Source of the DNA: Bacillota bacterium
GTDB taxonomy: Bacteria; Bacillota; Clostridia; Christensenellales; SZUA-584
Length of the DNA stretch: 58,103 nt
Reading direction: 5' to 3'
Assembly (NCBI GenBank): GCA_023396555.1
Contig: JAEWWC010000058.1
Coordinates: 1 to 58,103 of the forward strand
Position 1 is the stretch's first letter; the number at the start of each line of letters is the position of its first letter. Made by a program: the position numbers and the translations under genes. Below, piece after piece: positions 27,338 through 56,894 of the stretch. The notes beneath the pieces are model-generated. The model was not told where the DNA came from and did no database searches. It saw only the letters and a list, made by a program, of their open reading frames with translations.

Positions 27338-27441
27338 TAATGTGCTAAAAATCTGCTATTCTTTGACCTGCACCTGTGGTAGTATTAATCGGAATTGCGT
27401 AGAGCACCACTAATCAATAGAGAACGGAACGAACCGAAGAT

Positions 27442-28869: not shown

Positions 28870-28971
28870 GAAAGGTTGCACTTTGGGCCCAGCTACAGTA
28901 CAATTTGGGAAGCAATATTTTGGCGGCCAGCAGCCGATATTATGGATACAAGGATAGAGAAGGAGAAGAAC

Positions 28972-29964: not shown

Positions 29965-29969
29965 GTGGA

Positions 29970-30710
29970 ATGGCGAAAACGGTTGCTGTGATACAGGCGC
30001 GCGTGGGGTCGACAAGGCTGCCCGGCAAGGTGCTAAAGCTGCTGCATGGCAAAACCGTGTTGGCGCATGTGATTGAAAGGGTGCGGCAGGCCGCGGAGGT
30101 GGTCGAAATCGTGATCGCCACGACCGTCTCGCCAGGCGACGATGCGATTGTTGACGAGGCGTTGCGTTGCGCCACAACGGTGTTCCGCGGCAGCGAGGAG
30201 GATGTGCTGAGCCGTTATTACGGCGCGGCGGCGGAATCTGGTGCGAATATCGTGGTGCGCGTCACATCGGACTGCCCGCTGATCGACCCGCAGGTGATGG
30301 ACGAAATCATCAGGTTTTTTAAGAGGAATGATTATGACATCGTGACGAACGCCGCCAGCGATATATCCAAGCGGACTTATCCGCGTGGGCTGGATACCGA
30401 GGTGTTTTCGTTTTCCGCGCTGGAGGAGGCTGCAAACAAGGCGGACAAGCAGTATCAGCACGAGCACGTAACGCCCTATATCTACGAGCACGGCCGCGCC
30501 TATTATCACATGAATGACACTGACTATTCGCGCTACCGCTGGACGCTGGACACCGAGGAGGACTGGCGACTGATCGAAGCGCTGTACGACAGCCTTTATA
30601 AGGGCCGGCATGACTTTTATTTGCCGGACATATTGGACGTGATGCAGCGGCGGCCGGAGTTGTTTGATATCAACAAGGATATTGGGCAGAAAAAGCTGGG
30701 AACGGAGTAG
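29970..30710 (+). CDS. Nonulosonate cytidylyltransferase (SpsF/CTP_transf_3-type; PseF role)
   Basis: MAKTVAVIQARVGSTRLPGKVLKLL.GKTVLAHVIERV is an SpsF-like cytidylyltransferase N-terminus. The gene lies between pseB and pseI. Confidence 0.7.
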   Translation: MAKTVAVIQARVGSTRLPGKVLKLLHGKTVLAHVIERVRQAAEVVEIVIATTVSPGDDAIVDEALRCATTVFRGSEEDVLSRYYGAAAESGANIVVRVTSDCPLIDPQVMDEIIRFFKRNDYDIVTNAASDISKRTYPRGLDTEVFSFSALEEAANKADKQYQHEHVTPYIYEHGRAYYHMNDTDYSRYRWTLDTEEDWRLIEALYDSLYKGRHDFYLPDILDVMQRRPELFDINKDIGQKKLGTE

Positions 30711-30714
30711 AAGC

Positions 30715-31773
30715 GTGAACACTATTGCAATATGCGACCGTTTAATCGGTGAGGGATATCCGGCGTATATCATCGCTGAAATGTCTGCTAATCATGCAGG
30801 GAGCATGAACAATGCTAGAAAAATCATCCGCGCTGCGAAGGACGCCGGAGCCGATTGTATAAAGGTGCAGACGTATACTGCGGACACGCTTACCATCAAT
30901 TGTGACAACGAATTCTTCTCAATAAAGGACGGCCTGTGGAAGGGGGAAACGCTGTACAGCCTTTACGGCAAAGCGTACACGCCGTGGGAGTGGCAGGCCG
31001 AGATGAAGGCTGAGGCGGAGAACATCGGGCTGGACTTCTTCTCCACACCTTTTGACAACTCGGCAGTGGATTTTCTCGAAGATATCAGTGTGAAATTCTT
31101 CAAAATCGCTTCGTTTGAGCTAGTGGATATTCCGCTGATACAATATGTGGCGTCCAAGGGCAAGCCGGTGATAATTTCCACCGGCATGGCAAGCTTTGAC
31201 GAGATACGGGACGCCGTGGACGCGGTACGGTCGCAGGGAAATGAATCGCTGGCGTTGATGAAATGCTCCAGCGCTTACCCCGCCGTTCCGGATGACATGA
31301 ACCTCAGAACGCTTCAGCACATAGCGGACACTTTTCAAGTTCCCGTCGGTTTATCGGATCATTCGCTGGGTTCCATCAGCGCTGTTACGGCTGTGGCGCT
31401 GGGCGCGTGCATCATCGAAAAGCACTTCTGCCTGAGTCGCGGACTGGAGAATCCGGACGCGGCATTTTCCATGGAGCCGGACGAATTCTCGCAGATGGTA
31501 AAGGATATCCGTACCGCGGAGAAGGCGATAGGGAAAGCCGGCTACGATATTTCCGAAAAGGAGAAGGACAGCCTGCGCTTCCGGCGGTCCCTGTTCGTCG
31601 TAAAGGATATCGGCAAAGGCGAGGCGCTGACGGCAGAAAACGTACGCAGCATCCGACCGGGACAGGGGATGAAGCCCAAGCACTACTTTGAAATATTGGG
31701 GAGGAAGGCGGCACAGGATATCAAAGCCGGTACGCCCCTGCAATTTGATCTGATTGAGGGCGGCGGGAAATGA
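30715..31773 (+). CDS. pseI: Pseudaminic acid synthase (NeuB family with a C-terminal SAF domain)
   Basis: GTG at 30715 after GGAG. IGEGYPAYIIAEMSANHAGS...AKDAGADCIKVQTY...FKIASFELVDIPLI...GKPVIISTGMA...LMKCSSAYPA...GLSDHSLG, followed by a SAF-type tail. Confidence 0.85.
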   Translation: MNTIAICDRLIGEGYPAYIIAEMSANHAGSMNNARKIIRAAKDAGADCIKVQTYTADTLTINCDNEFFSIKDGLWKGETLYSLYGKAYTPWEWQAEMKAEAENIGLDFFSTPFDNSAVDFLEDISVKFFKIASFELVDIPLIQYVASKGKPVIISTGMASFDEIRDAVDAVRSQGNESLALMKCSSAYPAVPDDMNLRTLQHIADTFQVPVGLSDHSLGSISAVTAVALGACIIEKHFCLSRGLENPDAAFSMEPDEFSQMVKDIRTAEKAIGKAGYDISEKEKDSLRFRRSLFVVKDIGKGEALTAENVRSIRPGQGMKPKHYFEILGRKAAQDIKAGTPLQFDLIEGGGK

Positions 31774-33266
31774 CGCCGTTTTATCTGCGGAAGGCCGAAT
31801 GGACCGACGCCAGAACGCTGCTCGACTGGGCCAACGACCCGGATACCCGGAGGAACTCCTTTCGTTCAGACGGGATAACATGGGAGGAGCATATCGGCTG
31901 GTTTGAAGCCTGTCTGAAAAATCCCAATATCGATTTTTATATCTGCTGCTGCGAGGACCAGCCCGTCGGCCAGGTGCGCCTGAACTGTGAAGGCGAAATT
32001 GGTGTGGTGAGCTACAGCATCGCCAGGGAAGCCCGCGGACAGGGCATCGGCAGCCAGATCATACAACTGATTGAAAAGGAGGCCCTCAGATCGAGGCCGG
32101 AGCTGACGACACTGTCGGGCAGCGTCAAGACGGAAAACGTCGCCTCGCAACGGATATTTGAGAAGAATGGCTATCGGAAGGAGACCGTTCAAGCGTCGGA
32201 GCCGTATTTGCGTTATATCAAGGCGCTGACGCGGCGGCCTGCCATCGGCATACGCGTAGACGCGAATAGCCATATCGCCACCGGACATATGATGCGCTGT
32301 CTGTCCATCGCGGCGGCGGTGAGGAAGACGGGGGCGGACTGCGTCTTTTTTACGGCGGAACGCGAGGCCGCCCGTTATGCGGAGGATCGCGGTTTTGAGT
32401 GTGTGCCGCTGGATTCGCAGTGGGACGACCTTGAGCCAGAGGCGGACAGGCTGCGGAGTGCGCTACGGGAGCGGGGTATCGGTAAACTGCTTGTCGATAC
32501 GTATTACGCTACGCCCGCATATCTTGAAAGGCTCCGTACGGGCGTCAGCGCCATCTATATGGACGATCTTAATGCGTTTTTCTGTCCGGCGGACATGCTG
32601 ATAAACTACAACATATACAGTGGCCTGTTCGATTATCCCCGGCTGTATCGGAACACCGGAACGCGCCTGCTGCTGGGCTGCGACTATGCGCCGCTGCGCG
32701 AAGAGTTCCGCGGACTGCCGCCCGTTGCCCGTGATAGCGTCCGCAGGGTGCTGATCACGACGGGTGGTACGGATCCGTACAACGTGGCGGGTAAGCTGCT
32801 GAAGCGTATAGGTGAGTGCGGACTGTTCGGTGGCGTGGAGTTTCATGTGATCGCGGGGCGGTTGAATGCGCAACTTGATAGTCTGAAGGCGCTGTCGGAA
32901 AAGCGGCCCGGCTTTGTGGTGTATTCGAACGCGCAGCGCATGGCGGAGCTGATGCGAAGCTGTGATCTGGCGGTGTCGGCGGGCGGCTCAACACTGTACG
33001 AGCTGTGCGCTTGCGGATTGCCGACCGTCACGCTCTCCATGGCGGACAACCAGCTGTACGCCGTGAGGGAGTTTGCCGTGCAGGGGCTGATGCCGTATGC
33101 GGGCGACATGCGCGCGGATGAATCGGCGTGCGTTGGGGCCGTGCTGGCCGCGCTAACTGCGCTGACGGAGGATAAGGAACGCCGCAGGCAGACTGCGCAG
33201 GGCATGAGGCTGCTGGTGGATGGAAACGGCGCGGGGCGCATCGCGGATGCCATTGCCGCGCTTTAA
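31770..33266 (+). CDS. Bifunctional PseH-like GNAT N-acetyltransferase (N-terminal) / PseG-like UDP-sugar hydrolase (C-terminal)
   Basis: Residues ~1-160 form a GNAT fold (VGQVRLN...ARGQGIGSQIIQLIEKEA...ENVASQRIFEKNGY). Residues ~165-498 are PseG-like GT-B (IGIRVDANSHIATGHMMRCLSIAAAV...LITTGGTDPYN...VSAGGSTLYELCACGLP). Confidence 0.8.
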   Translation: MTPFYLRKAEWTDARTLLDWANDPDTRRNSFRSDGITWEEHIGWFEACLKNPNIDFYICCCEDQPVGQVRLNCEGEIGVVSYSIAREARGQGIGSQIIQLIEKEALRSRPELTTLSGSVKTENVASQRIFEKNGYRKETVQASEPYLRYIKALTRRPAIGIRVDANSHIATGHMMRCLSIAAAVRKTGADCVFFTAEREAARYAEDRGFECVPLDSQWDDLEPEADRLRSALRERGIGKLLVDTYYATPAYLERLRTGVSAIYMDDLNAFFCPADMLINYNIYSGLFDYPRLYRNTGTRLLLGCDYAPLREEFRGLPPVARDSVRRVLITTGGTDPYNVAGKLLKRIGECGLFGGVEFHVIAGRLNAQLDSLKALSEKRPGFVVYSNAQRMAELMRSCDLAVSAGGSTLYELCACGLPTVTLSMADNQLYAVREFAVQGLMPYAGDMRADESACVGAVLAALTALTEDKERRRQTAQGMRLLVDGNGAGRIADAIAAL

Positions 33267-33284
33267 GCGATTTTGGAGGACGAA

Positions 33285-34409
33285 ATGTTTATACCCTACG
33301 GAAGACAATGCATTGAGGAAGACGATATACAGGCGGTTGCGGAGGTACTTCGGTCGGATTTTCTGACGACCGGCCCCAAGGCGGCGGAGTTTGAGCAGGT
33401 GATGACGGCATACACCGGAGCGAAGCATGCGGTCGCCATTAGCAACGGCACCGCGGCGCTGCATGCGGCCTGCCTCGCGGCGGGTATCGGCGAGGGCGAC
33501 GAGGTGATCACCTCGGCCATCACGTTCGCTGCGTCGGCCAACTGCACGTTGTTCTGCGGCGGCCGTCCGGTGTTCGCGGACATCGAACCGGCCACGTACA
33601 ACATCGATCCTGAGGATATCCGGCGTAAGATTACGGGCCGGACGAAGGCCATAATACCGGTGCATTTCACCGGGCAGCCGTGCGACATGGACGCCATTCA
33701 CGCCATCGCGGACGAATGCGGCCTTATGGTGATCGAGGATGCCGCACACGCGCTGGGGGCGGAATACAAGGGCAAAAGGATCGGCGCGTTGTCCGACATG
33801 ACCACGATGAGCTTCCATCCCGTCAAGCATATATCGACGGGCGAGGGCGGTATGATACTGACGAATGACGATGAGCTGATCAAAAGGCTGGTGCTCTTCC
33901 GTTCGCATGGCATCACGCGCGATGACAGCCTGATGAACCGCAACGAGGGCGGCTGGTACTATGAACAGCTTGAACTGTCCACCAACTACCGCATCACCGA
34001 CTTCCAGTGCGCACTGGGCATCAGCCAGATGAAAAAGCTGGACCGCTTTGTGCAGCGCCGCCGCGAAATCGCCCGGCGTTACGACGAGGCGTTCGCGGGG
34101 CTGGAGGGCATTGTGACGCCATGGCAGTCGCCCGACGGGTACAACAGCTACCATCTCTATGTGATACAGGTGACGCACATGCCCCGGAAGGAAGCGTTCG
34201 ACAGGCTCCGCGCGGCGGGGATCGGTGTTAATGTCCACTATATTCCCGTCTATAAGCACCCTTATTATCAGGCAAACGGTTATGTGGGCGTTTCGTGCCC
34301 CAACGCCGAAGCGCTGTATGAGAGGATGATCAGCCTGCCCATGTTCCCGCTGTTGACAGACGAGCAGCAGGATTACGTGATCGCGCAGGTGCGCGCGCTG
34401 CACGGGTGA
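33285..34409 (+). CDS. pseC: UDP-4-amino-4,6-dideoxy-N-acetyl-beta-L-altrosamine transaminase (DegT family)
   Basis: ATG at 33285 after GGAGG. MFIPYGRQCIEEDDIQAVAEVLRSDFLTTGPK...AISNGTAALHAA...SFHPVKHISTGEGGMILTND is typical of PseC. Confidence 0.85.
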   Translation: MFIPYGRQCIEEDDIQAVAEVLRSDFLTTGPKAAEFEQVMTAYTGAKHAVAISNGTAALHAACLAAGIGEGDEVITSAITFAASANCTLFCGGRPVFADIEPATYNIDPEDIRRKITGRTKAIIPVHFTGQPCDMDAIHAIADECGLMVIEDAAHALGAEYKGKRIGALSDMTTMSFHPVKHISTGEGGMILTNDDELIKRLVLFRSHGITRDDSLMNRNEGGWYYEQLELSTNYRITDFQCALGISQMKKLDRFVQRRREIARRYDEAFAGLEGIVTPWQSPDGYNSYHLYVIQVTHMPRKEAFDRLRAAGIGVNVHYIPVYKHPYYQANGYVGVSCPNAEALYERMISLPMFPLLTDEQQDYVIAQVRALHG

Positions 34410-35977
34410 CGGAACTGCTGCCGGAAAACCGGAGTAAAGGAAGGCTGGCGGCATTTCTCCGGAACAGATTCTATGAGGTTTTCTGCGGATTTCCGTTCAT
34501 CGTCGCGCTGGTTTTTGGCGTTATCAGCTTTTTTAATCCGGATATGGACGGGCGTAGGATGAGCCTGTTGCTTGTCCTTGTTTTTTTCGGCCTGTGCGCA
34601 CTTTGGCTCTGGTTTGCCGGAGAGCCGCAGGGCAGGGCCGGCAGGCTGTGGCGCTGGTTGTATATGCCGATGGCGGTATGGGTGTGCGCTGCCGCAATCC
34701 GCATTGCCTGGGCTGTCCATGTCGGCCCATATGTTGAGCCTTTTTCCGATTTTGATTGGGCGTATCAGGCGGCGCTAGGCTCAACTGATTTCATCCGGCA
34801 TCATGCCACGTTTCCTTCGTGGGGGCTGTATGTCGGCTTGATTAGATTAGTTATTAATATTAGTTCGCCCGCATTTATAAGCATTCAGATTTTTAACGCG
34901 TTGGTCAACAGTTTCACAGTCATACTGGTGTACTATATCACTTTGCTCGCTGCTAAGAATTTCAAAGTTGCTGTCGTGGCAGGCCTGATGATGTGCTTTA
35001 TGCCATCAAATATACTTTATACAAGTGTACTAAGCCCGGAAATTCCATCTCTGCTGTTATTACTGCTGGTTATTCTGGGTATGATCGTTACATTCAAGCC
35101 GGAACTGAGATTATGGATACGGGTAATCATTTTGATCAGCGTAGGCGCTGTTTGTGCTGTAGCCAATTATTTAAAGGCCGTAGCGGTTATTGCGATCATC
35201 GCATACGTCATTGCACAGGTGATGTATCTGCGAAAGAGAGATACTGCCCAGGTTGAAGACAAAAAGAAACCATTGATAAAACAAGCGGCAATTGTTGGTC
35301 TGTCAATTGTTTTGATGGCTGTTCCGTTTCTACTGACAACGAAGGCTATAAACCGTTATGTTGAACAGGAACTCGGAGTGTCCATAAACCATAGTCAAAT
35401 GTCGCACTTTCTGTTTGTGGGGCTAAATACCAAAGGGGAGGGGCAGATACATATCGGTGAATACAACCATATGGATCTTGAATTTTTGGCAGAGCATGAC
35501 TATGATTATGAACTGACCGACCAATGGGTCAGGGAGTTTCTCCGCCGTGACTGGTCGGATAACTATGAGGATATCCCTGCACTGTTCTTCAGCAAGATAC
35601 AGTGGGCTTGGCAAGATGATATGATGCCGGCGGCATATACCGGTCAGCAGATTGACAGTACAAACATGGATTCAAGTCAAGTACAAGTAATAGAACAGTA
35701 TGCGCCGTCGTTGTCTCAGGCGTTTTATGTAGTTTTTATGCTTCTGGCCGTAGTAGGTAGTATTGGCATCAGGAAGCAGCATGCAGATAATAATGGCTAT
35801 TTCCTATTGTGCATGTATATTTTCGGCGTTGCGCTGGTACTGTTGCTGAGCGAAGCGCAGTCGCGCTATAAATGTATGGTCACACCTGTGATCTGTATTT
35901 TGTCATCAGTGGGTTTAGAAACAGTCACAAAAGGTATAAAGGAGAGAATTCTACACATATGGGAATCAAGCCATTAA
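34406..35977 (+). CDS. Polytopic GT-C-fold glycosyltransferase (GT39/GT83, ArnT/PMT_2-like; GtrC-type role)
   Basis: GTG start overlapping the pseC stop (GTGA). 523 aa with more than 10 TM helices, an early extracytoplasmic loop with an acidic aromatic motif (PFSDFDWAY) and a large loop near the C-terminus. It is followed by GtrA- and GtrB-like genes. Confidence 0.55.
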   Translation: MTELLPENRSKGRLAAFLRNRFYEVFCGFPFIVALVFGVISFFNPDMDGRRMSLLLVLVFFGLCALWLWFAGEPQGRAGRLWRWLYMPMAVWVCAAAIRIAWAVHVGPYVEPFSDFDWAYQAALGSTDFIRHHATFPSWGLYVGLIRLVINISSPAFISIQIFNALVNSFTVILVYYITLLAAKNFKVAVVAGLMMCFMPSNILYTSVLSPEIPSLLLLLLVILGMIVTFKPELRLWIRVIILISVGAVCAVANYLKAVAVIAIIAYVIAQVMYLRKRDTAQVEDKKKPLIKQAAIVGLSIVLMAVPFLLTTKAINRYVEQELGVSINHSQMSHFLFVGLNTKGEGQIHIGEYNHMDLEFLAEHDYDYELTDQWVREFLRRDWSDNYEDIPALFFSKIQWAWQDDMMPAAYTGQQIDSTNMDSSQVQVIEQYAPSLSQAFYVVFMLLAVVGSIGIRKQHADNNGYFLLCMYIFGVALVLLLSEAQSRYKCMVTPVICILSSVGLETVTKGIKERILHIWESSH

Positions 35978-38295: not shown

Positions 38296-38615
38296 ACCAG
38301 AACCTCCTCGCTATTATCTGGATAAATTGTATGGGCTGAATTGCCCTGTTGTCAAGGGAAAATGTCCGCAAAGCCCCGATGGGTTACCAGTTTGAGAGCC
38401 TCGCTTCGATAGAGCGGCAGATTCCATCACACCAACAGAATAATTTCGATTTTTAATTTAAAATAGTTTATGGAGAAATATTCTTGAAAAATCCAAACAA
38501 TGGGGATATAATATTACATAATCATTACAAAAGTTTCGCTGGCGTTATATTTTAGTCTTTCCAAGCCGGTTTGTTGGCTATAATAAGCAGGCGAGGAGCT
38601 GTGTTGAAAACAGTT

Positions 38616-40487
38616 ATGTTAAACGGCATTCAGAAAATCAAAAAAATATCCCGCGTTGTTTTACTGCTTCTTCTTGAGGTCAGCATGGCGGCGGGCTTTG
38701 GTCTGTGGCCCGCTCCAGCGGCTTACGCGGCGGATTACGAAGACGAGCCGGAGGAGGAGCCTGTGACGGCGTCGGGCCTCGTGATCGACGCTGAGGAACT
38801 GAGCTTGTATGTGGGAGACGAAGCCTTGCTGACCGTTACGGTGCAGCCGGAAGGAGCGGCCTGTCCGCCGCTGGAATGGATAAGCAGTGACGAGAGCGTG
38901 GTGTCGGTGGACGAGGAGGGGCTGGTAACGGCGGCCGGCGAAGGCGTTGCTGAGGTTACCGTGACGGGCGGCGGAATGACGGACACCTGCGATATTACAG
39001 TGTCGGCTGCTCCGACGTTTATGATACAATTGGCGAGCGACGAAGTGACACTGGCGCAGCACGACACGGTGGCGCTGGAAATAGCGAGTGAGACGGAAGA
39101 TGCCGGTAAAGAAAGTGTCAGCTGGGTAAGCAGCGATCCGGATGTGGCTTCCGTGGACGCGGCGGGCAACGTGACGGCCTGCTGCCCCGGGGTGGCTACC
39201 ATATCCGTATCCGCGGGCATTGTGACGGATACGTGCACTGTTACAGTGGTGCCGTGCGAGATACAGTCCAGCCGGTATCTGGTGGACAGAGAGAACGGAT
39301 TGCTCAAAGGTGTGCGGCTGAACACCACGGTGGACGATCTCAAGTCCCGTCTGGACAACGACGCGGATTTTATTGAGGTGATAAGGGATGGCGAGCGGGT
39401 TGAGTCGGGCCGTATCGGTACCGGCATGGATGTCAGGCTGGTCGTCAATAAAGCGGTAAAGGACGAACTGAACGTCAGCGTTCCCGGCGATGTCGACGGC
39501 GACGGACTGACGAGCGTCTATGAGTATACGATGGCGCGGATGTATCTGCTGGGCAAATCCGTGTTGGATGCGGACCCGGAGCTGTACGATCTCAACGCGG
39601 ACGGCCGGGTGAGCATCACGGACTATACGTTGATCAGGCTCAACATACTGGGCGTCATACCGGATGGCGACGATCTCTCCGGCTTCCCTGAAATCGTGCC
39701 GGCGCTGAAAGCTTCGGCGCTGGGATGCAGCGCTACGCTGTCTTGGGATGCCGTGCCGGATGCGGGCGGATATGAGCTGCTGAGATCCGGTTCGGCGTCC
39801 GGCCCGTTCGTACCGGTGGGAACCGCCAGCGGCGGAACCTTAAGCTTTACGGACAATACCCTCGCGATGGAAAGCTCATACTATTACAAGCTGCTGGCCT
39901 ACAGGACGCTGGATGGCGTGCGCGTAGATACGCAGTACTCCGCGGTGAAATCCGTCTCGACGCCGAACTATACGGTATATTATCAGGGCGACCCCAAATG
40001 GGGGTTCTCCAGCTCTGTCCGCAAGAGCGCCTGCGTGATCACCGCCTATGCCGTCACTATCAACAACATGGGCACACCCTGTACGCCACCGGATATCTAT
40101 AAGTCCAACGGCAACCAGACCCCGATGAAGATAGATAACCTTAAGAAGAACTTCGGCGTGAAGCCGGTGAGCGGCCTTGGTTCATCGTCCAAATATCTCG
40201 CCAGCTTTGACGGGGCGTATACATTCATCAAGAACCCGTCCTCAAATTACGAGGCGGCGGTAAAGGAAGCGCTGGCTCGCAATCCGGAGGGCGTGATACT
40301 TTACTTCAAGAAGGGGAGCGACGCGCATGCGGTGGTGGCCTGCAAACTGTCGGACGGAAAGATCTACTACAGCGATCCGGGACGCAACCGGACGACGCTG
40401 GTGGACTTTTCCGAGACGTGGTGCAAGGTGGGACACAATATGAGCTACACGAATCTGGCGTATATGATCGCGCTGGATCGGTCGTGA
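38616..40487 (+). CDS. Secreted multidomain protein: 3x Big_2 Ig-like, conserved module plus internal dockerin, Fn3, and a C-terminal papain-like (peptidase C39-like) domain
   Basis: The start is uncertain: ATG at 38616, or TTG at 38604 after GAGGAG. Signal peptide ...AAGFGLWPAPAAYA. Big_2-like repeats: LSLYVGDEALLTVTVQPEGA..., VTLAQHDTVALEI.... Dockerin: GDVDGDGLTSVYEYTMARMYLLG ... DLNADGRVSITDYTLIRLNILG. Fn3: LSWDAVPDAGGYELLRS...YYYKLLAY. C-terminus: YYQGDPKWG...KSACVITAYAV...DAHAVVAC (Cys/His). Confidence 0.75.
   Translation: MLNGIQKIKKISRVVLLLLLEVSMAAGFGLWPAPAAYAADYEDEPEEEPVTASGLVIDAEELSLYVGDEALLTVTVQPEGAACPPLEWISSDESVVSVDEEGLVTAAGEGVAEVTVTGGGMTDTCDITVSAAPTFMIQLASDEVTLAQHDTVALEIASETEDAGKESVSWVSSDPDVASVDAAGNVTACCPGVATISVSAGIVTDTCTVTVVPCEIQSSRYLVDRENGLLKGVRLNTTVDDLKSRLDNDADFIEVIRDGERVESGRIGTGMDVRLVVNKAVKDELNVSVPGDVDGDGLTSVYEYTMARMYLLGKSVLDADPELYDLNADGRVSITDYTLIRLNILGVIPDGDDLSGFPEIVPALKASALGCSATLSWDAVPDAGGYELLRSGSASGPFVPVGTASGGTLSFTDNTLAMESSYYYKLLAYRTLDGVRVDTQYSAVKSVSTPNYTVYYQGDPKWGFSSSVRKSACVITAYAVTINNMGTPCTPPDIYKSNGNQTPMKIDNLKKNFGVKPVSGLGSSSKYLASFDGAYTFIKNPSSNYEAAVKEALARNPEGVILYFKKGSDAHAVVACKLSDGKIYYSDPGRNRTTLVDFSETWCKVGHNMSYTNLAYMIALDRS
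39486..39662 (+). other. Dockerin module, in an internal position
   Basis: Two Ca-binding loop/helix segments, as quoted for the parent CDS. Confidence 0.7.
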
Positions 40488-47261: not shown

Positions 47262-47963
47262 TCACACGCCCTCAGGCTTTCGCTTCAGCCGGTAGTTGCG
47301 CCCCGCCTTGTACCCGATGCAGAAGCAGAACTGCCCGCACATATGCATGATGCGCCCGCCCAGCGCCTCGTCGTACCCGACGATCTCTTCCATTGACTTC
47401 TCGGACGTGAATATGGTGATGCCCCGGTTCACCACGCGCCGGTTGATCAGCTCAAAGGTGTGCTTTAAGTCCGCAGCCGTCGGTTCGTTCCGCATGAAGT
47501 CATCGATGTACAGCACCTCCGCTTTGCCATAGCGGGATAGCACATCGCCGTACGCCTCGTCGTTGACGGCGCTCTTCATCTCGTTCATCAACTGCTGAAA
47601 GGTGATGTATAGCGTCGTGCGCCCGCTGCTGATGAAGTGCTCGCATACCGCGGTACCCAGGTGCGTCTTGCCCGTCCCCGTCTGCCCGCTGATGTACAGG
47701 AACCGGCTGTCCTTCTGCGCGATGAAGTCGCGGCACAGCTTGAGCATGCGCTTCTGAAAGTCCTCCTTCGCCACAAAGTTGTCGAAGCGGAACCGGCTGA
47801 TGGAGTCCTCCAGGCCGGACTTCTTCAGCGCGATCAGTGAATGCCTCTGGGCGTCGCACGAGCATTTGGCATACATGTTCCTGCCGTTCTCTACCACCGG
47901 CACCAGCCCGGTATTGTTGCACTTGTCGCAGTGCATTGCGTTTTCAAATGTCAGCTCCATCAT
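47262..47963 (-). CDS. DnaC/IstB-like AAA+ ATPase (phage-type helicase loader)
   Basis: N-terminal Cys cluster CDKCNNTG...CSC, Walker A GQTGTGKTHL, Walker B LYIDDF. Confidence 0.8.
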   Translation of the reverse strand: MMELTFENAMHCDKCNNTGLVPVVENGRNMYAKCSCDAQRHSLIALKKSGLEDSISRFRFDNFVAKEDFQKRMLKLCRDFIAQKDSRFLYISGQTGTGKTHLGTAVCEHFISSGRTTLYITFQQLMNEMKSAVNDEAYGDVLSRYGKAEVLYIDDFMRNEPTAADLKHTFELINRRVVNRGITIFTSEKSMEEIVGYDEALGGRIMHMCGQFCFCIGYKAGRNYRLKRKPEGV

Positions 47964-48643
47964 AGCACCTCGCTGTATATGTATTCGATCACCTTGGGTT
48001 TATCCTTGCCCGGCGCGGCGCGCGCGTCCTGCTCCCATAGGCGCACGGAAGCCCGCCAGTCCTTCATCGGCGATTTGCCCACCATCCAACCCTTGGACTC
48101 GTAGAAGTCCATGAAGCGTTGTGCGTCCACGCCGCAGCCCCGCTCGGCGCAGTAGGCCTTCACGTCATCCAGCGTCGGCTTTTGAAAACGGGGTTTGGAA
48201 GTAGGGGTGTGTGTGTGCGGCCCGCCGCCGCGTATAAACACACTCTCCTTATCCTTATCCGTATCCGTATCCTTGTCCTTATCCTTATAGCTTATTTTGG
48301 GCTGGCTGTGGGATTCGGTGGGTTCCGTTGGGTTATTGCCGGTTTCTATGGATTTATCCGGGGCATCGCCGGTTTCCTCCGGGGCTTCGTCGCTTTTGGA
48401 CGGCCTGCCGCCTTTCATGCCGTTGGCGCGGTTGCGTTCACACATCGCCGTGTAATTGACGCGGTCGCGGTCCAGCTGTTTAGCCAGTAGCATGAAAGTC
48501 GCCTTGATCTGGCCTTCCAGCGATACGCTTCTGCCTTCCTCATGCGCGAACAGCCCCTTAATGAGCAGTCCGGCGTCCTCGTTGCTCATCGACTCAAACA
48601 CATCGCCGTAATCCCTGTACATCAGAAACGATTTCTTTTTCAT
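47960..48643 (-). CDS. Phage-type replication/replisome-organizer-like protein (DUF6291-like N-terminus)
   Basis: The N-terminus is FLMYRDYGDVFESMSNEDAGLLIKGLFAH. The C-terminus KPTLDDVKAYCAERGCGVDAQRFMDFYESKGWMVGKSPMKDWRASVRLW is typical of prophage replication genes. A low-complexity KDKDKDTDTDKDK linker separates them. Confidence 0.65.
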   Translation of the reverse strand: MKKKSFLMYRDYGDVFESMSNEDAGLLIKGLFAHEEGRSVSLEGQIKATFMLLAKQLDRDRVNYTAMCERNRANGMKGGRPSKSDEAPEETGDAPDKSIETGNNPTEPTESHSQPKISYKDKDKDTDTDKDKESVFIRGGGPHTHTPTSKPRFQKPTLDDVKAYCAERGCGVDAQRFMDFYESKGWMVGKSPMKDWRASVRLWEQDARAAPGKDKPKVIEYIYSEVL

Positions 48644-50483: not shown

Positions 50484-50513
50484 AAATAAAAAGCCGGCGG
50501 GAGCACCGCCGGC
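50484..50513 (-). terminator. Intrinsic terminator after LCP paralogue 1
   Basis: The minus strand reads GCCGGCGG TGCTC CCGCCGGC followed by TTTTTATTT. Confidence 0.7.
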
Positions 50514-50529
50514 CCTGATATACCGTAAA

Positions 50530-52506
50530 TTATCTGAAGTCCACGACGACCTCATTTTTGCTCTCATAGTTCACGCGCCAGCTGGGCAGGCTGATGGAGA
50601 ATAGCTTGCACAATGACTCAATGTTGGTTTTAACTGCTTCAACGCTGCCGGAGGACAATGAATCGACCTGATCCCGGCATTTGTGATATAGCGCCCATTC
50701 CGGTCCGTCGGGCAAATACTGGCGGTATCCCTTCGGTGCGCCAGAGGTGAGCGTTACGCTGCCCGCCGTGCCCGGCAATGCCAGCCTGTTCGTCAGCAGG
50801 ATGCCGGAGGAAACCGCTTCTTCGCCGGAGCTTTCCGTAGTGGCGGGCGGCGTCGGCGTCGTTACAGGCGGCGTCGGTGTCGTCACAGGCGGTGTGGGCG
50901 TCGTCACAGGCGGTGTGGGTGTTGTGACAGGCGGCGTCGGCGTCGTCACAGGCGGCGTTGTTTCCGTCGGCTCGGGAGTCGGCGTGGCCGCCCCGTATAC
51001 GGGCAGTTTGGCGTCCGCGTCCAGTTTGGCCTTCACCTTGGACAGCACGCTTTCCGCGCCCTTTCGGACAACGGGCAGCTGCATCCGGTTCCATTTCGCC
51101 ACAGCCGCTGAGTAGGAGTAGTCCTTGTATTTATCCACCTTGACGCCATATATCTTCTCAATCAATGCCACGCGCGCATCCTGGTCCGTCAGCACGAAGT
51201 TCCAGTTGAATATGCCGGCACAGGAGCGCCCGCCCATCGAATACATGCCGATGTCGTCGGGGTTCACGTTGTAGCCGAAAGCCGCCAGCGCCGCCGTCTG
51301 CGGCAGCGTAGTATTGGTGTACAGGTTGCCCTCAAACGCGTCCAGCAGATTGGGGATGCTCGCCAGCAGGCCGTTTGACTTGATCTTGTCGAATATGGCG
51401 ACCAGCATCTTTTTTTGCCTGTTGATGCGGTTGAGGTCGCCCGCCTCCGAGACGCCCTTGCGTACGCGCAGATAGTCCAGCACGGCCTGGCCGCTCATGT
51501 CCTGTACGCCCGCCTTATACGAACGCCCCTGCATCTTGAAGTCCATCTCCACGTCGAAGCCCTGCACGCCGCCGATTGCGTCCACCAGCCCCTTGACGGC
51601 GTTCATGTCTACCGCGTAGTAGTAGTCCACCGGTATGCCGCCCAGCATCCATTCCGCCGACTCACACACCTTCTCGAAGCCGCTCATGGAATACTTGTTG
51701 GCTTCTGAGGGCCAGCCGCCGCCGCAGTCGATGGATGCGTTCAGCTTGTATATGCCGTCGATATCGGGAATCTTAGCGTACGTATCGCGCGGGAGCGAGA
51801 TCATGTTGACCGCGCCCGTCACCTTGTTGACGGAAAGCACGATCATCACGTCCGAGTGGAACGCCTTTTTGCCGCTCCACGTATCGCGCTCCTCAGCATG
51901 GTCCACGCCGATCAGCATGATGTTAACGATGTCCTTCAAAAAGCCGGTATCGGCCTGCGCCAGCAGTACCTCGTACGGATCCGGCGTGGCGGTGGGGCCC
52001 GGTATGGAGGAATCCGACGGGTCCTTCGTGGCCTGAGAAGTGGGCGGCGGCGCCGTGATCTGGTCCGCCACTTGGTTGAACTGCGCCATCGGGTCGGTCC
52101 AGATGGACCAGGCCCATGCGCCCGCACCGATCAGCAGCAGCACGACAAAGCCCACGATGCTGAGTGCGACGATCTTCTTTGTGCTCCAGCGCTTGCGGAC
52201 CTTTCTATCCGGCTGACCGGTTGCTTCGTTCTCTGTATCCGCGCCAAATGTGAAAGGCTCACCGGGGGAGTCCTGTCCGGCGTCCGCTGCGGCGGCCTTT
52301 TTGCTGCTGCCAAACCATACGGCCTTCTTCTTTGCGGATTTCATACTGCCCGCACTGCTTTGCCCGACGGCGCTGTCTTCAGCGCTGCCGGCGTCCGTTT
52401 CATCCGGGCTGTTCTCCAGCCCATCGCCCGCATAATCCATACCCTCGGATTGCTGCTCGCCGTCGTGTCTGTCTTTCCTTCCGAACCACCAATTCTTACT
52501 CTTCAT
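50530..52506 (-). CDS. LCP (LytR-CpsA-Psr) family glycopolymer ligase, paralogue 1, with a Pro/Thr heptad linker and a conserved C-terminal domain of unknown function
   Basis: A cytoplasmic tail and one TM helix (IVALSIVGFVVLLLIGAGAWAW) precede the LCP core, IMLIGVDHAEERD...FHSDVMIVLSVNKVTGAVNMISLPRDTYAKIP...KLNASIDCGG. A (TPTPPVT)x5 linker follows, then a ~100-aa tail ending WRVNYESKNEVVVDFR. Confidence 0.85.
   Translation of the reverse strand: MKSKNWWFGRKDRHDGEQQSEGMDYAGDGLENSPDETDAGSAEDSAVGQSSAGSMKSAKKKAVWFGSSKKAAAADAGQDSPGEPFTFGADTENEATGQPDRKVRKRWSTKKIVALSIVGFVVLLLIGAGAWAWSIWTDPMAQFNQVADQITAPPPTSQATKDPSDSSIPGPTATPDPYEVLLAQADTGFLKDIVNIMLIGVDHAEERDTWSGKKAFHSDVMIVLSVNKVTGAVNMISLPRDTYAKIPDIDGIYKLNASIDCGGGWPSEANKYSMSGFEKVCESAEWMLGGIPVDYYYAVDMNAVKGLVDAIGGVQGFDVEMDFKMQGRSYKAGVQDMSGQAVLDYLRVRKGVSEAGDLNRINRQKKMLVAIFDKIKSNGLLASIPNLLDAFEGNLYTNTTLPQTAALAAFGYNVNPDDIGMYSMGGRSCAGIFNWNFVLTDQDARVALIEKIYGVKVDKYKDYSYSAAVAKWNRMQLPVVRKGAESVLSKVKAKLDADAKLPVYGAATPTPEPTETTPPVTTPTPPVTTPTPPVTTPTPPVTTPTPPVTTPTPPATTESSGEEAVSSGILLTNRLALPGTAGSVTLTSGAPKGYRQYLPDGPEWALYHKCRDQVDSLSSGSVEAVKTNIESLCKLFSISLPSWRVNYESKNEVVVDFR
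50846..50960 (-). repeat. 21-bp coding tandem repeat (about 5.4 copies) encoding TPTPPVT
   Basis: GGCGGCGTCGGCGTCGTCACA-type units, read on the plus strand. Confidence 0.85.
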
Positions 52507-52726
52507 GTGGGACTGCTCTTCCTTTGTGATATATGCTTATCCGGACAGGTTGTCGCGGTTAATGCCGATATAACAAACTGGTTTACACTGATTTAACATA
52601 AACTAATATAATACAAACTTTGGTATGTTTCCAACTGTTTTATCTCTTTATACCAAAAAAGTTTACACTTTGATTAATTTATTGCAGTATAAGACAGCAG
52701 AGGGAGGCGTAACCGCGGGGAATAGA

Positions 52727-52756
52727 TTAAGACCGGCTGTTCAAAGCCGGTCTTAA
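52727..52756 (-). terminator. Stable hairpin after LCP paralogue 2
   Basis: TTAAGACCGGCT GTTCAA AGCCGGTCTTAA is a 12-bp perfect stem 9 nt after the stop. The U-run is weak. Confidence 0.5.
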
Positions 52757-52764
52757 AAGGGCCT

Positions 52765-54546
52765 TTAGTTGAAGTCTACGAATATCTCGTTTTTGTTCTT
52801 CTCGTAGTTGACACGCCAGTAATCCTTGGTCACGGTAATACCGAAGGTGGCGCTGATGGAGGTGACGTCCGCGACCGCCTGATCGTTGGCGGCTTTCATC
52901 GCGCTGGTGGAGCCGCTGGCCGAGAGCTTTTCGCACTCTCTCACCGCCTTGTTGTATAGCGCCCAGACAGGACCATCCTCCGGATACTGCCGGAATCCTG
53001 ACGGTATGCCGGCGGTGTTCAGCGTAACGGTATCCGCGCGGGTACCTGTTGTGTTCGCCAGCCTGTTCAGCACCGCACCACTGTTTAACGCTTCGCCGGT
53101 GTCTTCCGGCGCGGGCGTGGGTGTCGCGGGCGGGGGTGTCGGCGTTGACGTTTCTGCGGGCGGTGGGGGCGTCGGTGTCACGGCGGGGGGCGTGGGCGTC
53201 GGCGGCGTGTATACAGGCAACTTCGCGTCCGCGTCCAGCTTGTCCTTCACCTTGGCCAGCGCTTTTAAGCCCTGGCTTTTAATGACGGGGGCGCGCATAC
53301 GCTCCCAGAGCCGGGTGGCTGCCGGGGCGGCGTAGTCCGAATACTCCGGCACGTCCACGCCGTATATCTGTTTGATCAGCTCCACGCGGGCCTTCTGGTC
53401 GGTGATGACGAAGTTCCAGTTGAATATGCCGTTATAATAACGGCCGCCCATCGAGTGCATGCCGATGCTGTCCGGCTCCACATCCATGGCGAACAGCGCG
53501 AGGCCCGCCGTATACGAGAGCGGCACGTTGGTGTAAAGGTTGCCGTCGAAGGCTTCGATGAGACCGGGGATGCTGGTCAGCAGCCCGTTCTTTTTGATCT
53601 TGTCGAATATGGCCACCAGCATCTTCTTCTGCCGGTTGACGCGGTTTAAGTCGCCTGAATCATCGATGTGTTTGCGTACGCGCAAATAGTCCAGCACCGC
53701 CTGCCCGTTCATGTCCTGCACGCCCGCCTTGTATTTGCGGCCCGCCATCTCAAAGTCCATCTCCACATCGAAGCCCTGCACGCCGCCGACGGCGTCCGCC
53801 AGCCCCTTGACGGCGTTCATGTCTACGGCATAATAATACTGCACCGGAATGCCGCCCAGCATCCAGCTAGCCGCCTCGCAGACCTTCTCGAAGCCCTTCG
53901 GCGAATATTGGTTGGCTTCCGTAGGCCAGCCGCCGCCGCAGTCGATGGAGGCGTTCAGCTTGTATATGCCGTCGATATCCGGTATCTGGGCGTACGTATC
54001 ACGCGGGAGCGAGATCATGTTGACCGTGCCTGTAGACTTGTTGACGGCCAGCACCAGCATCACGTCGGAGTGGAACGCCTGCTTGCCGCCATGCTTCACC
54101 CACTCTTCGGTATCGCGGTCCACCGAATGGTCCACGCCGATAAGCAGTATGTTGACGGTATCCTTCAAAAAGCTGGTGTCCGCCTGCGCCATCAGCAGGT
54201 CCAGCGGACTGGGCGTTGCTGTTGCGCCCGGCTCCATCGAAGCGCCGGGAGCCGCGGTCTGCGCCGCGTCAGGAGCCGGCGTCAGTTGATTGATCGCGGT
54301 GTCGAACCCGCCCATGGGATCGCTGCGGAGCGTCCAGTACCAGATGCCCGCGCCCGCCAGCGCCAGCACCACCACGCCGACGATGCTGAGGAGCACGATC
54401 TTTTTTCTGGTCCAGCCGCTGCGGGGCTTCGTTTTTTCACCGGACGGTTTCGCACTTGAGTCGTCCGCATCCAGAAAATCCAGCGTATAGTCGGGCACCT
54501 GTGCCGATCGGTTTGCGTCGTCCCTGATCTTTCTTTTCATCTTCAT
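52765..54546 (-). CDS. LCP family glycopolymer ligase, paralogue 2, with the same linker and C-terminal domain
   Basis: ILLIGVDHSVDRD...FHSDVMLVLAVNKSTGTVNMISLPRDTYAQIP. The linker is PPTPTPPAVTPTPPPPAETSTPTPPPATPTPAP. The tail reads GFRQYPEDGPVWALYNK...YWRVNYEKNKNEIFVDFN. Confidence 0.85.
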   Translation of the reverse strand: MKMKRKIRDDANRSAQVPDYTLDFLDADDSSAKPSGEKTKPRSGWTRKKIVLLSIVGVVVLALAGAGIWYWTLRSDPMGGFDTAINQLTPAPDAAQTAAPGASMEPGATATPSPLDLLMAQADTSFLKDTVNILLIGVDHSVDRDTEEWVKHGGKQAFHSDVMLVLAVNKSTGTVNMISLPRDTYAQIPDIDGIYKLNASIDCGGGWPTEANQYSPKGFEKVCEAASWMLGGIPVQYYYAVDMNAVKGLADAVGGVQGFDVEMDFEMAGRKYKAGVQDMNGQAVLDYLRVRKHIDDSGDLNRVNRQKKMLVAIFDKIKKNGLLTSIPGLIEAFDGNLYTNVPLSYTAGLALFAMDVEPDSIGMHSMGGRYYNGIFNWNFVITDQKARVELIKQIYGVDVPEYSDYAAPAATRLWERMRAPVIKSQGLKALAKVKDKLDADAKLPVYTPPTPTPPAVTPTPPPPAETSTPTPPPATPTPAPEDTGEALNSGAVLNRLANTTGTRADTVTLNTAGIPSGFRQYPEDGPVWALYNKAVRECEKLSASGSTSAMKAANDQAVADVTSISATFGITVTKDYWRVNYEKNKNEIFVDFN

Positions 54547-54681
54547 AATTCCTTAGTATATACTCAACCGCACAGCTTGTCCGGTTTGTTCCCACATGTG
54601 AGGAGATGCCATGGTCGGAATAATATGTATATTATATCCGTTGTTTGGACGACATGGAAGCGCGAGAAGTTCCCGAAAAGG

Positions 54682-54710
54682 TAAAAAAAGAGACCGGATT
54701 TCCGGCCTCT
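54682..54710 (-). terminator. Intrinsic terminator after LCP paralogue 3
   Basis: The minus strand reads AGAGGCCGG AAAT CCGGTCTCT followed by TTTTTTT. Confidence 0.7.
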
Positions 54711-54728
54711 CATTATAAAGCGGTTTGT

Positions 54729-56537
54729 TCAGTTGAAGTCTACAGTTACCTCATTGAAGCTCTTGTCGCTCTCGTAGTTGACGCGCCAGTAGCTGGCAGA
54801 CAGCGGGATGGAGAACGTGCCGCACAGCGACCTTACGTCTGCGATCACCTGATCGTTGGCGGTTTTTTTCGCATCCGTGCCGCCCTGCGAACCAAGCGCT
54901 GCACAGGCGGCGACCGTCTTGTTGTACAGCGTCCACAGCGGGCCGTCCGGCAGATACTGCCTGTATCCCGGCGGTATCACGGTGGTGGCGGCCAGCGTAA
55001 CGCGGTTTTGGCCTGTTCCCGTTGCGCTCAGCAGCATGAACGAGTTGCTGAGTACCGCGCTGCCGGACAGCGGTTCGCCGGTGATCTCCGGCGTCGGCGT
55101 CGGGGTGGGCGTCGGCGTCGGGGTGGGCGTCGGTGAGGGCGTCGGTGTCGGCGTCGTTACCGGCGGCTTGGGTGTCGGCGTGGGCTTGGGCGTCGGCGAG
55201 GGCGTGGGCGTCGGGGCCACGTAAATGGGCAGCTTGGCATCCGCGTCCAGCTTGGCCTTCACCTTGGCCAGCGCCTTTTCAGCCTGTTTCTGAATCACCG
55301 GGGCCCGCATGTCTTCCCACCTGGTTTCCGCCGCCGCTGCGGTGAAATTCTTGTACTGGTCCACCTTCACGCCGTATATCTGCTCGATCAGCGCCACGCG
55401 CGCCTTCTGGTCCGTCAGCACGAAGTTCCAGTTGAATATGCCGTAGTTGTATTTGCCGCCCATCGAGTACATGCCGATGTCGTCGGGGTTCACGTTGTAG
55501 CCGAAAGCCGCCAGCGCCGCAGTCTGGGGCAGCGTGGTGTTGGTGTATAGGTTGCCGTCGAACGCGTCCAGCAAATTGGGGATGCTCGTCAACAGGCCGT
55601 TTGACTTGATCTTGTTGAATATGGCCACCAGCATCTTCTTCTGGCGGTTGATGCGGTTGAGATCACCAGCGCTGGAGATGCCCTTGCGAACGCGCAGATA
55701 ATCCAGCACGGCCTGGCCGTTCATGTCCTGCACGCCCTTTGTGTAGGAGCGGCCCTGCATTTTGAAGTCCATCTCCACGTCGAAGCCCTGCACGCCGCCG
55801 ATGGCGTCCACCAGCCCCTTCACGGCGTTCATATCCACCGCGTAGTAGTAGTCCACCGGTATGCCGCCCAGCATCCATTCCGCCGACTCGCACACCTTTT
55901 CAAAGCCGCTCATGGAATAATTGTTGGCTTCCGTGGGCCAGCCGCCGCCGCAGTCGATGGACGCGTTCAGCTTGTATATGCCGTCCACGCCGGGTATCTG
56001 GGCGTACGTATCGCGCGGGAGCGAGATCATGTTGACCGCACCTGTCGCCTTGTTGACGGACAGCACGATCATCACGTCCGAATGGAACGCCTTTTTGCCG
56101 CTCCACGTGTCGCGCTCCACCGCATGGTCCACGCCGATCAGCATTATGTTGACGGTATCCTTCAAAAAGCCGGTGTCCGACTGAGCCAGCAGCGCCTCGT
56201 ACGGGTCTATCGTGGGCGAAGGGCCCGGCGTGGCCGAATCCGACGGATCGTCGGTGACCTGCGGCGCTTCCGTCTGCGCCGGCGGAGGAGTGATCTGATC
56301 CTCAACGTTGTTGAATTGCGCCATCGGGTCGGTCCAGATGGAATAAGCGTAAGCGCCGCCGCCGATGAGTATCAGCACGAGCGCGCCCACGATGCCCATG
56401 ACAATGATCTTTTTGTTGCTCCAGCGCCCGCCCTTTTTCCTGCGGGGCTTAACGCCGTCCACCTTCACCCGGTCGATGCCGTTTTCCGCGGAATCCTCCA
56501 GATAGTCGTTCCCAGTTCCCCTCAACCTCTTCATCAT
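54729..56537 (-). CDS. LCP family glycopolymer ligase, paralogue 3, with the same linker and C-terminal domain
   Basis: Start probably at MMKRLRGTG (ATG 56537); the ORF-track start at 56615 lacks an RBS. The core is nearly identical to paralogue 1. The linker is PTPTPSPTPKPTPTPKPPVTTPTPTPSPTPTPTPTPTPTPTP. The tail reads GYRQYLPDGPLWTLYNK...YWRVNYESDKSFNEVTVDFN. Confidence 0.85.
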   Translation of the reverse strand: MMKRLRGTGNDYLEDSAENGIDRVKVDGVKPRRKKGGRWSNKKIIVMGIVGALVLILIGGGAYAYSIWTDPMAQFNNVEDQITPPPAQTEAPQVTDDPSDSATPGPSPTIDPYEALLAQSDTGFLKDTVNIMLIGVDHAVERDTWSGKKAFHSDVMIVLSVNKATGAVNMISLPRDTYAQIPGVDGIYKLNASIDCGGGWPTEANNYSMSGFEKVCESAEWMLGGIPVDYYYAVDMNAVKGLVDAIGGVQGFDVEMDFKMQGRSYTKGVQDMNGQAVLDYLRVRKGISSAGDLNRINRQKKMLVAIFNKIKSNGLLTSIPNLLDAFDGNLYTNTTLPQTAALAAFGYNVNPDDIGMYSMGGKYNYGIFNWNFVLTDQKARVALIEQIYGVKVDQYKNFTAAAAETRWEDMRAPVIQKQAEKALAKVKAKLDADAKLPIYVAPTPTPSPTPKPTPTPKPPVTTPTPTPSPTPTPTPTPTPTPTPEITGEPLSGSAVLSNSFMLLSATGTGQNRVTLAATTVIPPGYRQYLPDGPLWTLYNKTVAACAALGSQGGTDAKKTANDQVIADVRSLCGTFSIPLSASYWRVNYESDKSFNEVTVDFN

Positions 56538-56894
56538 ATGTATCTGCTCTTTCATTATAATATGTATGTTTATCCCGGCAAGCTGCCGGCGTTTTATGCT
56601 GTCAAACGGCAACACGCTTTATATTAATACAGCCGCTCATTCAGTACCAACATTTTTATTGCGCATCCCAGAAAAATTTACACTTTAGTAATTTTCCCGT
56701 GCAATTTTCCAACGCTTAAGACGTCGGACAGACGCCAAATGTTCCGGCGGACAATGAAGAATTATATGTGAAATCAGCAAAAAATCAAGCCGCTGTTCGC
56801 AATTGGAGTATAGGGCTGCGGCAAAACATATGAGCTGGGCGGCAGCATCCAGGAACAACGCGTCCTTTGAGGCGAATATTCGGAAATAATCCGG

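Follow-up and report, generated by a model that had tools for sequence, protein, structure and literature searches.

LytR-CpsA-Psr (LCP) enzymes transfer undecaprenyl-pyrophosphate-linked glycopolymers onto peptidoglycan. They complete the decoration of Gram-positive walls and are regarded as drug targets. The closest described systems are the Firmicute trios TagT/TagU/TagV of Bacillus subtilis, LcpA/B/C of Staphylococcus aureus and Cps2A/LytR/Psr of Streptococcus pneumoniae, in which an N-terminal transmembrane (TM) anchor carries an extracytoplasmic catalytic domain. To our knowledge, the assignment of LCP paralogues within one cell to polymers, sites and partners is still poorly understood. 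Here, we analysed three LCP genes, g1, g2 and g3, on contig JAEWWC010000058.1 of a Bacillota bacterium (assembly GCA_023396555.1); "the window" denotes the whole stretch of 58,103 nt. The three proteins share the domain, the predicted fold, the Asp/Arg residues and the membrane topology of the trios. In contrast to the canonical members, their genes lie in tandem, they are about twice as long (593-658 aa vs ~300 aa), and they carry a two-cysteine insertion in the core, an extended post-catalytic helix (helix A), a Pro/Thr (PT) loop and a conserved C-terminal tail, none of which aligns to solved LCP chains. The locus presents an ordinary enzyme family with an uncatalogued, lineage-restricted accessory module, and the structural modelling gives a modest preference to a tail that folds back, within its own molecule, onto helix A and the core. 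Several LCP paralogues per genome are the norm in Firmicutes (PMC7831098).

Accessory domains of other LCP proteins provide the nearest points of comparison. LytR_C (PF13399), found in Lcp1/Rv3267 and CpsA/Rv3484 of Mycobacterium tuberculosis and in LcpA of Corynebacterium glutamicum, is likewise LCP-specific and C-terminal to the LCP domain. LcpA of C. glutamicum depends on it to function (PMC7831098), and it has been implicated in protein-protein interaction (PMC7831098, PMC11832169). By analogy of placement, LytR_C is the best functional parallel for the tail, but the likeness is positional only. PF13399 gave no match at E<=1 in g1-g3 and none among 60 diverse tails. LytR_C is actinobacterial, from a different phylum, and also occurs as a stand-alone protein (VirR, Cei), whereas no apparent stand-alone tail that we examined held up; in the present proteins, a PT loop separates tail from core. 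The accessory domain of Cps2A/CpsA (CATH 3tflA01), which modulates function (PMC7831098), is also a non-catalytic extracellular addition to the LCP core, but it is N-terminal, between the TM helix and the core. The g3 model accordingly matched 3tfl and 3tep over the LCP part only (TM-score to target 0.57). FIVAR and other small helical modules of Gram-positive surface proteins resemble the tail in being short, helical and extracellular and in a Y..(S)W..L...A...L-like pattern. However, FIVAR matched only two of the 60 tails (E ~1e-3), and the tail's invariant W.V.YE...NE..VDF motif has no counterpart there. Unannotated C-terminal domains in LCP proteins have been acknowledged in a review (PMC7831098), so the existence of one more is not surprising in itself.

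The triplet is encoded on the minus strand, and all features of the three genes given below lie on that strand. In transcription order, g3 (54729-56537) encodes 602 aa from its ATG, with the mechanical open reading frame (ORF) extending upstream to a GTG at 56615; g2 (52765-54546) encodes 593 aa and is the most diverged; and g1 (50530-52506) encodes 658 aa with a long cytoplasmic N-terminal tail of 111 aa. The genes are arranged head-to-tail with intergenic gaps of 182 and 258 bp. The ORFs, the family matches described below and the alignment bore out the claim of a preliminary description of this DNA that they are three LCP paralogues of one architecture. This layout comprises a cytoplasmic N-terminal tail (43, 49 and 111 aa in the triplet), a TM helix, a juxtamembrane stalk rich in Pro/Ser/Thr in all three proteins, the LCP core, a long helix, a linker and the C-terminal tail. 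In each protein, a hydrophobic helix of 25 residues comes after a basic cluster. In g3, the anchor comprises residues 44-68 (56334-56408) after the cluster RRKKGGRWSNKK and coincides with an AlphaFold helix at 41-69; the equivalent segments are 54325-54399 in g2 and 52099-52173 in g1. According to the positive-inside rule, g1-g3 would be single-pass membrane proteins with the N-terminus inside and the catalytic domain outside.

The assignment to the LCP family is as good as certain, since every defining feature that could be examined was found. PF03816 (LytR_cpsA_psr) matched g3, g1 and g2 with E-values of 5.9e-33, 2.8e-31 and 3.8e-29 (102-115 bits vs a cut-off of 24.6), and TIGR00350 scored 84-101 bits against a curated cut-off of 62.3. 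The cores correspond to residues 119-394 of g3 (55356-56183), as delimited by the Pfam, TIGRFAM and PDB matches, and to 53344-54186 in g2 and 51130-51957 in g1. Sequence searches of the PDB retrieved TagU, TagV, TagT, Cps2A and MsrR, with the alignment ending by residue 363. AlphaFold, run on full-length g3 with an alignment of 113 homologues, gave a model that has a mean predicted local distance difference test (pLDDT) score of 82, with the core above 90, and adopts the LCP alpha-beta-alpha fold. The model matched 33 solved LCP chains, including TagT, TagU, TagV, Cps2A, S. aureus LcpA, MsrR and Psr, with Foldseek E-values of 1e-10 to 1e-17 and TM-scores to target of 0.56-0.83; the best group, TagT/U/V, Cps2A and LcpA, reached 1e-15 to 1e-17.

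The alignment of the 113 homologues contained 52 invariant columns, including the GVD, PRD, RxR and GD..R..RQ motifs. D137, R142, D154, R175, D176, R282, R284, D292, R295, R298 and Q299 (g3 numbering) were invariant, also in g1-g3, and the Asp/Arg positions aligned with the GVD / aD / PRD / RxR / GD..R..RQ motifs of TagU and Lmo1026. We take these residues to be the published Mg2+/pyrophosphate-binding catalytic residues of Cps2A and TagT. Because the invariant Asp/Arg residues of the family are kept in all three paralogues, all three are probably active LCP phosphotransferases. The core also carries a subfamily-specific insertion of ~13 aa (CGGGWP...KVCE) with two invariant cysteines, C196 and C216. 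Together with C572 of the tail, these cysteines lie at window positions ~55950, 55890 and 54822 (minus strand) in an extracytoplasmic protein of a presumed anaerobe; C572, in helix C of the tail, shows 85% conservation and lacks an evident partner.

The C-terminal tail comprises residues 521-602 in g3 (54732-54977), residues 514-593 in g2 (52768-53007) and residues 590-658 in g1 (50533-50739), where the inter-helix loop is shorter. In g3 it consists of the GYRQY segment, helix B (533-546), helix C (554-574) and the terminal WRVNYE...NEVTVDFN-COOH. The motifs quoted in the preliminary description, G(Y/F)RQY..DGP.W(A/T)LY(N/H)K, a Cys-containing helix and WRVNYE...NE(V/I)xVDF(N/R) at the C-terminal end, were present in all three proteins. 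A shared tail was also correctly described, although its stated length of ~100 aa was too generous, since the conserved core spans ~70-82 aa and the preceding 20-35 aa are poorly conserved. N595 and F601 were invariant among the 113 homologues, matching the invariance of the catalytic residues, and Y528, Y538, L571, W584 and D600 were conserved at >=90%. Across more than 110 homologues, the tail is conserved at 40-85% identity.

These tails form a real family. A tail hidden Markov model (HMM), which scored the g1-g3 tails at E-values of 1e-38 to 1e-58, matched 120 of 123 proteins (117 of 120 full-length LCP homologues plus the three fragments used to build it), always at the extreme C-terminus, and two of the three proteins it missed still end in ...NE(I/V)KVDFR. 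An exhaustive HMMER scan of 1.84 billion (1.84e9) representative proteins returned 31 tail matches; the full-length ones that were checked are LCP proteins, and the short ones resemble C-terminal fragments. In this set, no tail was found on an unrelated catalytic domain, the credible matches checked being LCP C-termini or short fragments. Multi-stretch matches (P0133, P0137, P0141, P0142 and P0144) were repetitive, gave incoherent Pfam matches and were set aside as compositional. A genome scan yielded nine loci, in each of which the tail ends an LCP protein; all belong to metagenome-assembled genomes (MAGs) of uncultured Bacillota, Christensenellales or Clostridia. Word-indexed searches with the tail profile returned 3 and 23 short proteins, several of which resembled stand-alone tails. 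We rejected these as independent proteins because the two contigs inspected carry frameshifted or fragmented LCP genes.

Two of the tail fragments, P0150 and P0162, are labelled "flagellar hook-basal body complex protein FliE" by the Joint Genome Institute (JGI), a label that probably reflects a misannotated helical hairpin. P0164, on an 853-bp contig, reads as a putative stand-alone form in which a lipoprotein signal peptide (LAVAGC) precedes the tail. In the relatives P0047, P0049 and P0093, the LCP subfamily is fused N-terminally to a BlaR1-type Peptidase_M56 membrane domain, an arrangement suggestive of a sensor-like role for the ectodomain.

The tail corresponds to no named domain, as the preliminary description had supposed. 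In the full g1-g3 proteins, the tail region had no Pfam or NCBIfam match at E<=1, and the 60 diverse tails, scanned singly, gave no consistent family (DUF3444 in four and FIVAR in two, all weak). The tail profile found only unrelated proteins among PDB sequences (subtilisin, ribosomal protein S20; best E 0.55). A tail-only model retrieved generic helical hairpins among PDB folds, none better than E=1.2 in Foldseek, which is a weak test as the ends of the model are of low confidence. No profile or fold match to a carbohydrate- or wall-binding family (CBM, SLH, LysM, SH3b, PG_binding, CW_binding) was obtained for the window tails. Matches of the linker to Trypan_PARP, Gp350, SslE and ClfB were discarded as low-complexity artefacts. 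The literature searched contained no description of the tail. With good confidence, we consider the tail an LCP-only, unannotated element; neither the family nor its predicted fold-back through the PT loop seems to have been described in the libraries and papers searched. It would constitute a new family for domain databases, found in LCPs of uncultured Christensenellales-like Clostridia. Its practical impact is limited by the uncultured host and by the prior acknowledgement of unannotated LCP C-terminal domains (PMC7831098).

The relation of the tail to the rest of the protein was approached by structure prediction. In the full-length g3 model, the tail (521-600) and the helix at 400-440 had pLDDT values of 95-98, with helix A itself at 97-98, while linker residues 483-514 were below 50. 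In the tail-only model, the two helices reached ~90 pLDDT, whereas the GYRQY start and the WRVNYE...NEVTVDFN end dropped to ~50-70. As the terminal motifs are confident only in the full protein, the prediction is that their order depends on contact with the remaining chain. The candidate docking partner, helix A (400-434 in g3), lies in a region of residues 395-437 that ends in a conserved LDADAxLP (55227-55355; equivalents at 53215-53343 in g2 and 51001-51129 in g1). It displays a conserved stripe formed by A403, W407, M410, L423, V426 and L430.

Weak covariation between helix A and the tail points in the same direction. Mean-field direct coupling analysis (DCA) of the 113-sequence alignment (effective number of sequences, Meff, 84) ranked V426-F575 third and R411-I565 thirteenth of ~178,000 pairs. 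E408-N561, I415-N561, E408-K558 and A412-N561 also scored highly, so that the block of helix A against residues 554-580 held six pairs in the top 300 vs 1.6 expected, all fitting one parallel register (j ~ i+150). The covarying states exchange as Q411/K565 vs R411/(I,V)565 and as V426/F575 vs A426/L575, and these swaps look physical.

The segment between helix A and the tail is the PT-rich linker, which comprises residues 438-520 in g3 (54978-55226, with a Tandem Repeats Finder array at 55089-55214) and lies at 53008-53214 in g2 and 50740-51000 in g1, the latter with a 21-nt x 5.4 repeat at 50846-50958. Its DNA consists of tandem repeats with periods of 21 nt (g1), 15/27 nt (g2) and 6/18 nt (g3). 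Among the homologues, its length varies from 12 to 153 aa (median 73). Several homologues have only 12-25 aa, and in the M56 fusions P0047 and P0049, which retain both elements, a linker of 16 aa joins helix A to the tail. With linkers so short, the tail must adjoin the end of helix A. At the other extreme, the 153-aa linker of P0070 contains an immunoglobulin-like, non-repetitive insertion (TVIDTGDTVMFTVQITNISADAIDSFEVRN...); evidently, whole domains can be accommodated in the loop that precedes the tail.

Helix A and the tail also vary together. The cores of g1 and g3 are 92% identical, as against 56% for helix A and 57% for the tail, whereas orthologues share 77-94% in helix A and 74-83% in the tail; helix A identity among the paralogues is 52-62%. 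In P0093, the only close relative without the tail, the core is 80% identical and a NAGPA domain replaces the C-terminus. This protein aligns to g3 only up to residue 407, similarity being gone from 408, and hence most of helix A is absent along with the tail.

We propose, on the basis of the model, that helix A (400-434 in g3) and the tail would form one LCP-specific module rather than a separate wall-binding module, with the PT segment as a variable loop of 12-153 aa inserted between them. The two helices of the tail would pack against helix A, most simply as an up-down-up three-helix bundle, and the terminal motifs GYRQY and W-x-V-N-Y-E...N-E-x-x-V-D-F-COOH would rest against helix A or the LCP core. 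We hold such an intramolecular fold-back to be somewhat better than an even bet, for several observations weigh against it. Docking is deduced from differences in pLDDT and is not seen in coordinates or predicted aligned error, and the two models compared differ in their alignments (113 sequences for the full-length protein vs 60 for the tail alone). Although the last 28 residues score high in pLDDT, DSSP finds no strands among them. With a Meff of only 84, the DCA signal is limited, and the enriched region was picked after the top pairs had been viewed (p ~0.006, uncorrected). A diagonal-band test of the covariation placed helix A above all 80 control windows (z 3.7), a result confounded by the variability of helix A, and it leaves the helix orientation ambiguous. 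Moreover, the covarying states follow the paralogue clades and could therefore stem from common descent. That helix and tail are missing together is drawn from one protein, P0093.

Prediction of a monomer cannot separate docking in cis from docking onto another LCP molecule, and the pLDDT and covariation evidence applies equally to a tail that clasps helix A or the core of a second LCP protein, of the same or a different paralogue, giving homo- or hetero-oligomers. Linkers of 70-150 aa would reach neighbouring molecules, three paralogues are co-retained in one locus, and LytR_C offers precedents, as it mediates VirR-Lcp interactions in M. tuberculosis (PMC11832169) and has been discussed for LcpA oligomers in C. 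glutamicum (PMC7831098). Yet helix A and tail co-diverge within each paralogue, which favours a tail's own helix over cross-paralogue pairing, and homologues with 12-16-aa linkers, like genomes with a single copy, work without partner paralogues, although homo-oligomeric swapping stays compatible with them. We therefore rate docking in trans as improbable.

The preliminary description had pictured the tail as a distal domain on a flexible stalk that targets each enzyme to a wall or spore layer. Long PT linkers are classical extended spacers between independent modules, and the tandem-repeat linkers of the triplet's family (median 73 aa) are typical of those between catalytic and binding modules. 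An independently folding binder of wall glycan, peptidoglycan or a spore layer on an extended, possibly glycosylated stalk, with a separate layer for each paralogue, would also agree with the conserved aromatic residues of the tail (Y528, W535, Y538, W584, Y588 and F601), with tails that differ among paralogues and are conserved among orthologues, with a hairpin confidently predicted by itself and with the sub-threshold FIVAR matches. The comparison of the two models speaks against this picture, since the most conserved motifs are unplaced in the tail-only model and confident in the full protein. So do the linkers of 12-25 aa in several homologues and of 16 aa in the M56 fusions, and the covariation and co-divergence of the tail with helix A. 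Furthermore, no binding family matched in sequence or fold, the predicted fold, a small helical hairpin, is no beta-sandwich, and, unlike genuine wall-binding modules, the tail was found on no other type of protein. The stalk model is thus unlikely, and its spore-layer version draws its sole support from the CotF-like gene adjoining the triplet. The strictly C-terminal position and the invariant ...VDF(N/R)-COOH end could alternatively suggest a sorting, secretion or processing signal, or a cleaved propeptide. We consider this very improbable, because ~80 aa with two well-predicted helices far exceed a signal, the protein is already anchored at its N-terminus, and the polar end (...SFNEVTVDFN, read directly) includes no LPXTG-type motif, hydrophobic segment or basic tail. 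The adjoining linker is of low complexity and yields spurious Pfam matches (PARP, Gp350), in keeping with a tail that would be non-functional, either as disordered low-complexity sequence or as similarity left only by a recent duplication. That idea is refuted by conservation in more than 110 homologues, the invariant residues, conservation at the level of orthologues and helices predicted at ~90 pLDDT even in isolation, and its likelihood is negligible.

A further, speculative reading, which we regard as a long shot, is that helix A, loop and tail act as a regulated clasp on the LCP ectodomain, in which docking and undocking of the C-terminal peptide gates the donor tunnel or acceptor groove or reports its occupancy. 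If so, the ectodomain of LCP core and tail in the M56 fusions P0047 and P0049 would be a wall-glycopolymer sensor signalling across the membrane, and the triplet would comprise ligases or sensors with different tuning instead of enzymes that are simply redundant.

The triplication is, with high confidence, old and stably retained. In the identity matrix and neighbour-joining tree, each paralogue was 78-86% identical to its own orthologue and the paralogues were 60-70% identical to one another. The related MAG L002 carries all three in the same order, and tandem pairs or triplets recur among the nine loci. Orthologues of g3 were identified at L002:5540, L001:6543 and L003:6465, of g2 at L002:7509 (82% identity) and of g1 at L002:9491, L001:8823 and L003:8965. 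Synteny is kept in L001 and L002, where the order of MFS transporter, CotF-like gene, LCP triplet, LigB-type dioxygenase and rubrerythrin is found. As each paralogue groups with its own orthologue and order and flanks are conserved, the triplication predates these lineages, which speaks for sub-functionalisation rather than for a recent amplification or for gene conversion. At the protein level, g2 is 61-62% identical to g1 and g3, and at the DNA level ~79%, confirming the greater divergence ascribed to paralogue 2. The long identical DNA stretches reported between g1 and g3 reflect genuine similarity (83.5% over 1246 bp) but were overstated, the longest exact run being 53 nt; with these values and with separate orthologues, recent conversion between g1 and g3 was rejected. 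Two distant genomes each encode a single tail-bearing LCP protein, in unrelated gene contexts, and no conserved functional neighbours were found there.

Differences between the paralogues concentrate in the cytoplasmic tail, the stalk, helix A and the C-terminal tail. Since the cores hardly differ, whereas helix A, the C-terminal tail and the N-terminal tail are specific to each paralogue and yet kept in its orthologues, we infer that the module, together with the N-terminal tail and stalk, is the likeliest carrier of paralogue identity. Judged from the sequences, such identity is less likely to lie in a different catalytic chemistry than in localisation, in the machinery with which each enzyme partners or in how the donor or acceptor site is gated. 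Distinct substrate glycans, which the preliminary description had put forward, are possible even though the cores of g1 and g3 are near-identical (92%). That the module of helix A, loop and tail itself confers specificity is a tentative proposal, which we would put at rather less than even. A module that varies among paralogues while the core does not is nevertheless a concrete candidate for the seat of paralogue identity.

Immediately downstream of each gene lies a strong hairpin (-17 to -22 kcal/mol, z -3.1 to -4.6), in line with the earlier view that each has its own terminator, with the reservation that the U-tract after g2 is weak. All are on the minus strand. The terminator hairpins after g3 (54688-54711; -16.8 kcal/mol, z -4.2) and g1 (50490-50516; -21.9 kcal/mol, z -3.1) end in U-runs, and the one after g2 (52725-52756; -20 kcal/mol, z -4.6) has a 12-bp stem. 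The upstream regions of g1 and g3 can be aligned and contain a 20-nt motif, AAAGTGTAAAyTTTTTyTGG, at 56667-56686 (minus strand, ~130 nt before g3) and 52652-52671 (minus strand, ~150 nt before g1); two matches were observed vs 0.01 expected by chance. The motif also precedes the g1 orthologues in L001 (8659-8673) and L002 (9370-9384); no copy precedes g2. It may serve as promoter or operator, with the pattern TGTAAA-N17/18-ATAAAA. A search for structured RNA in the 5' leaders returned no Rfam match anywhere in the window.

A Wzx/Wzy-type polysaccharide cluster lies 14 kb from the triplet (22311-35977, plus strand). It encodes two GT2 glycosyltransferases, an 855-aa Wzy_C protein, a Polysacc_synt flippase, a Polysacc_synt_2 (PseB-like) dehydratase, a NeuB-type nonulosonic-acid synthase, a GNAT+GT28_C fusion and a weak PMT-like GT-C, and is a candidate source of the lipid-linked glycan for the LCP enzymes. 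Type I dockerins are present on a SpoIID+SH3_3 protein (17057-19423, plus strand) and a Big_2 protein (38571-40487, plus strand), an unusual occurrence on non-cellulolytic wall or sporulation-type proteins. Finally, 47262-48643 (minus strand) encodes a DUF6291 protein and an IstB/DnaC-like ATPase, a replication pair of phage or mobile-element type that is located between ClpB/DnaJ and the rubrerythrin gene and is kept in L001 at 80-83% identity.

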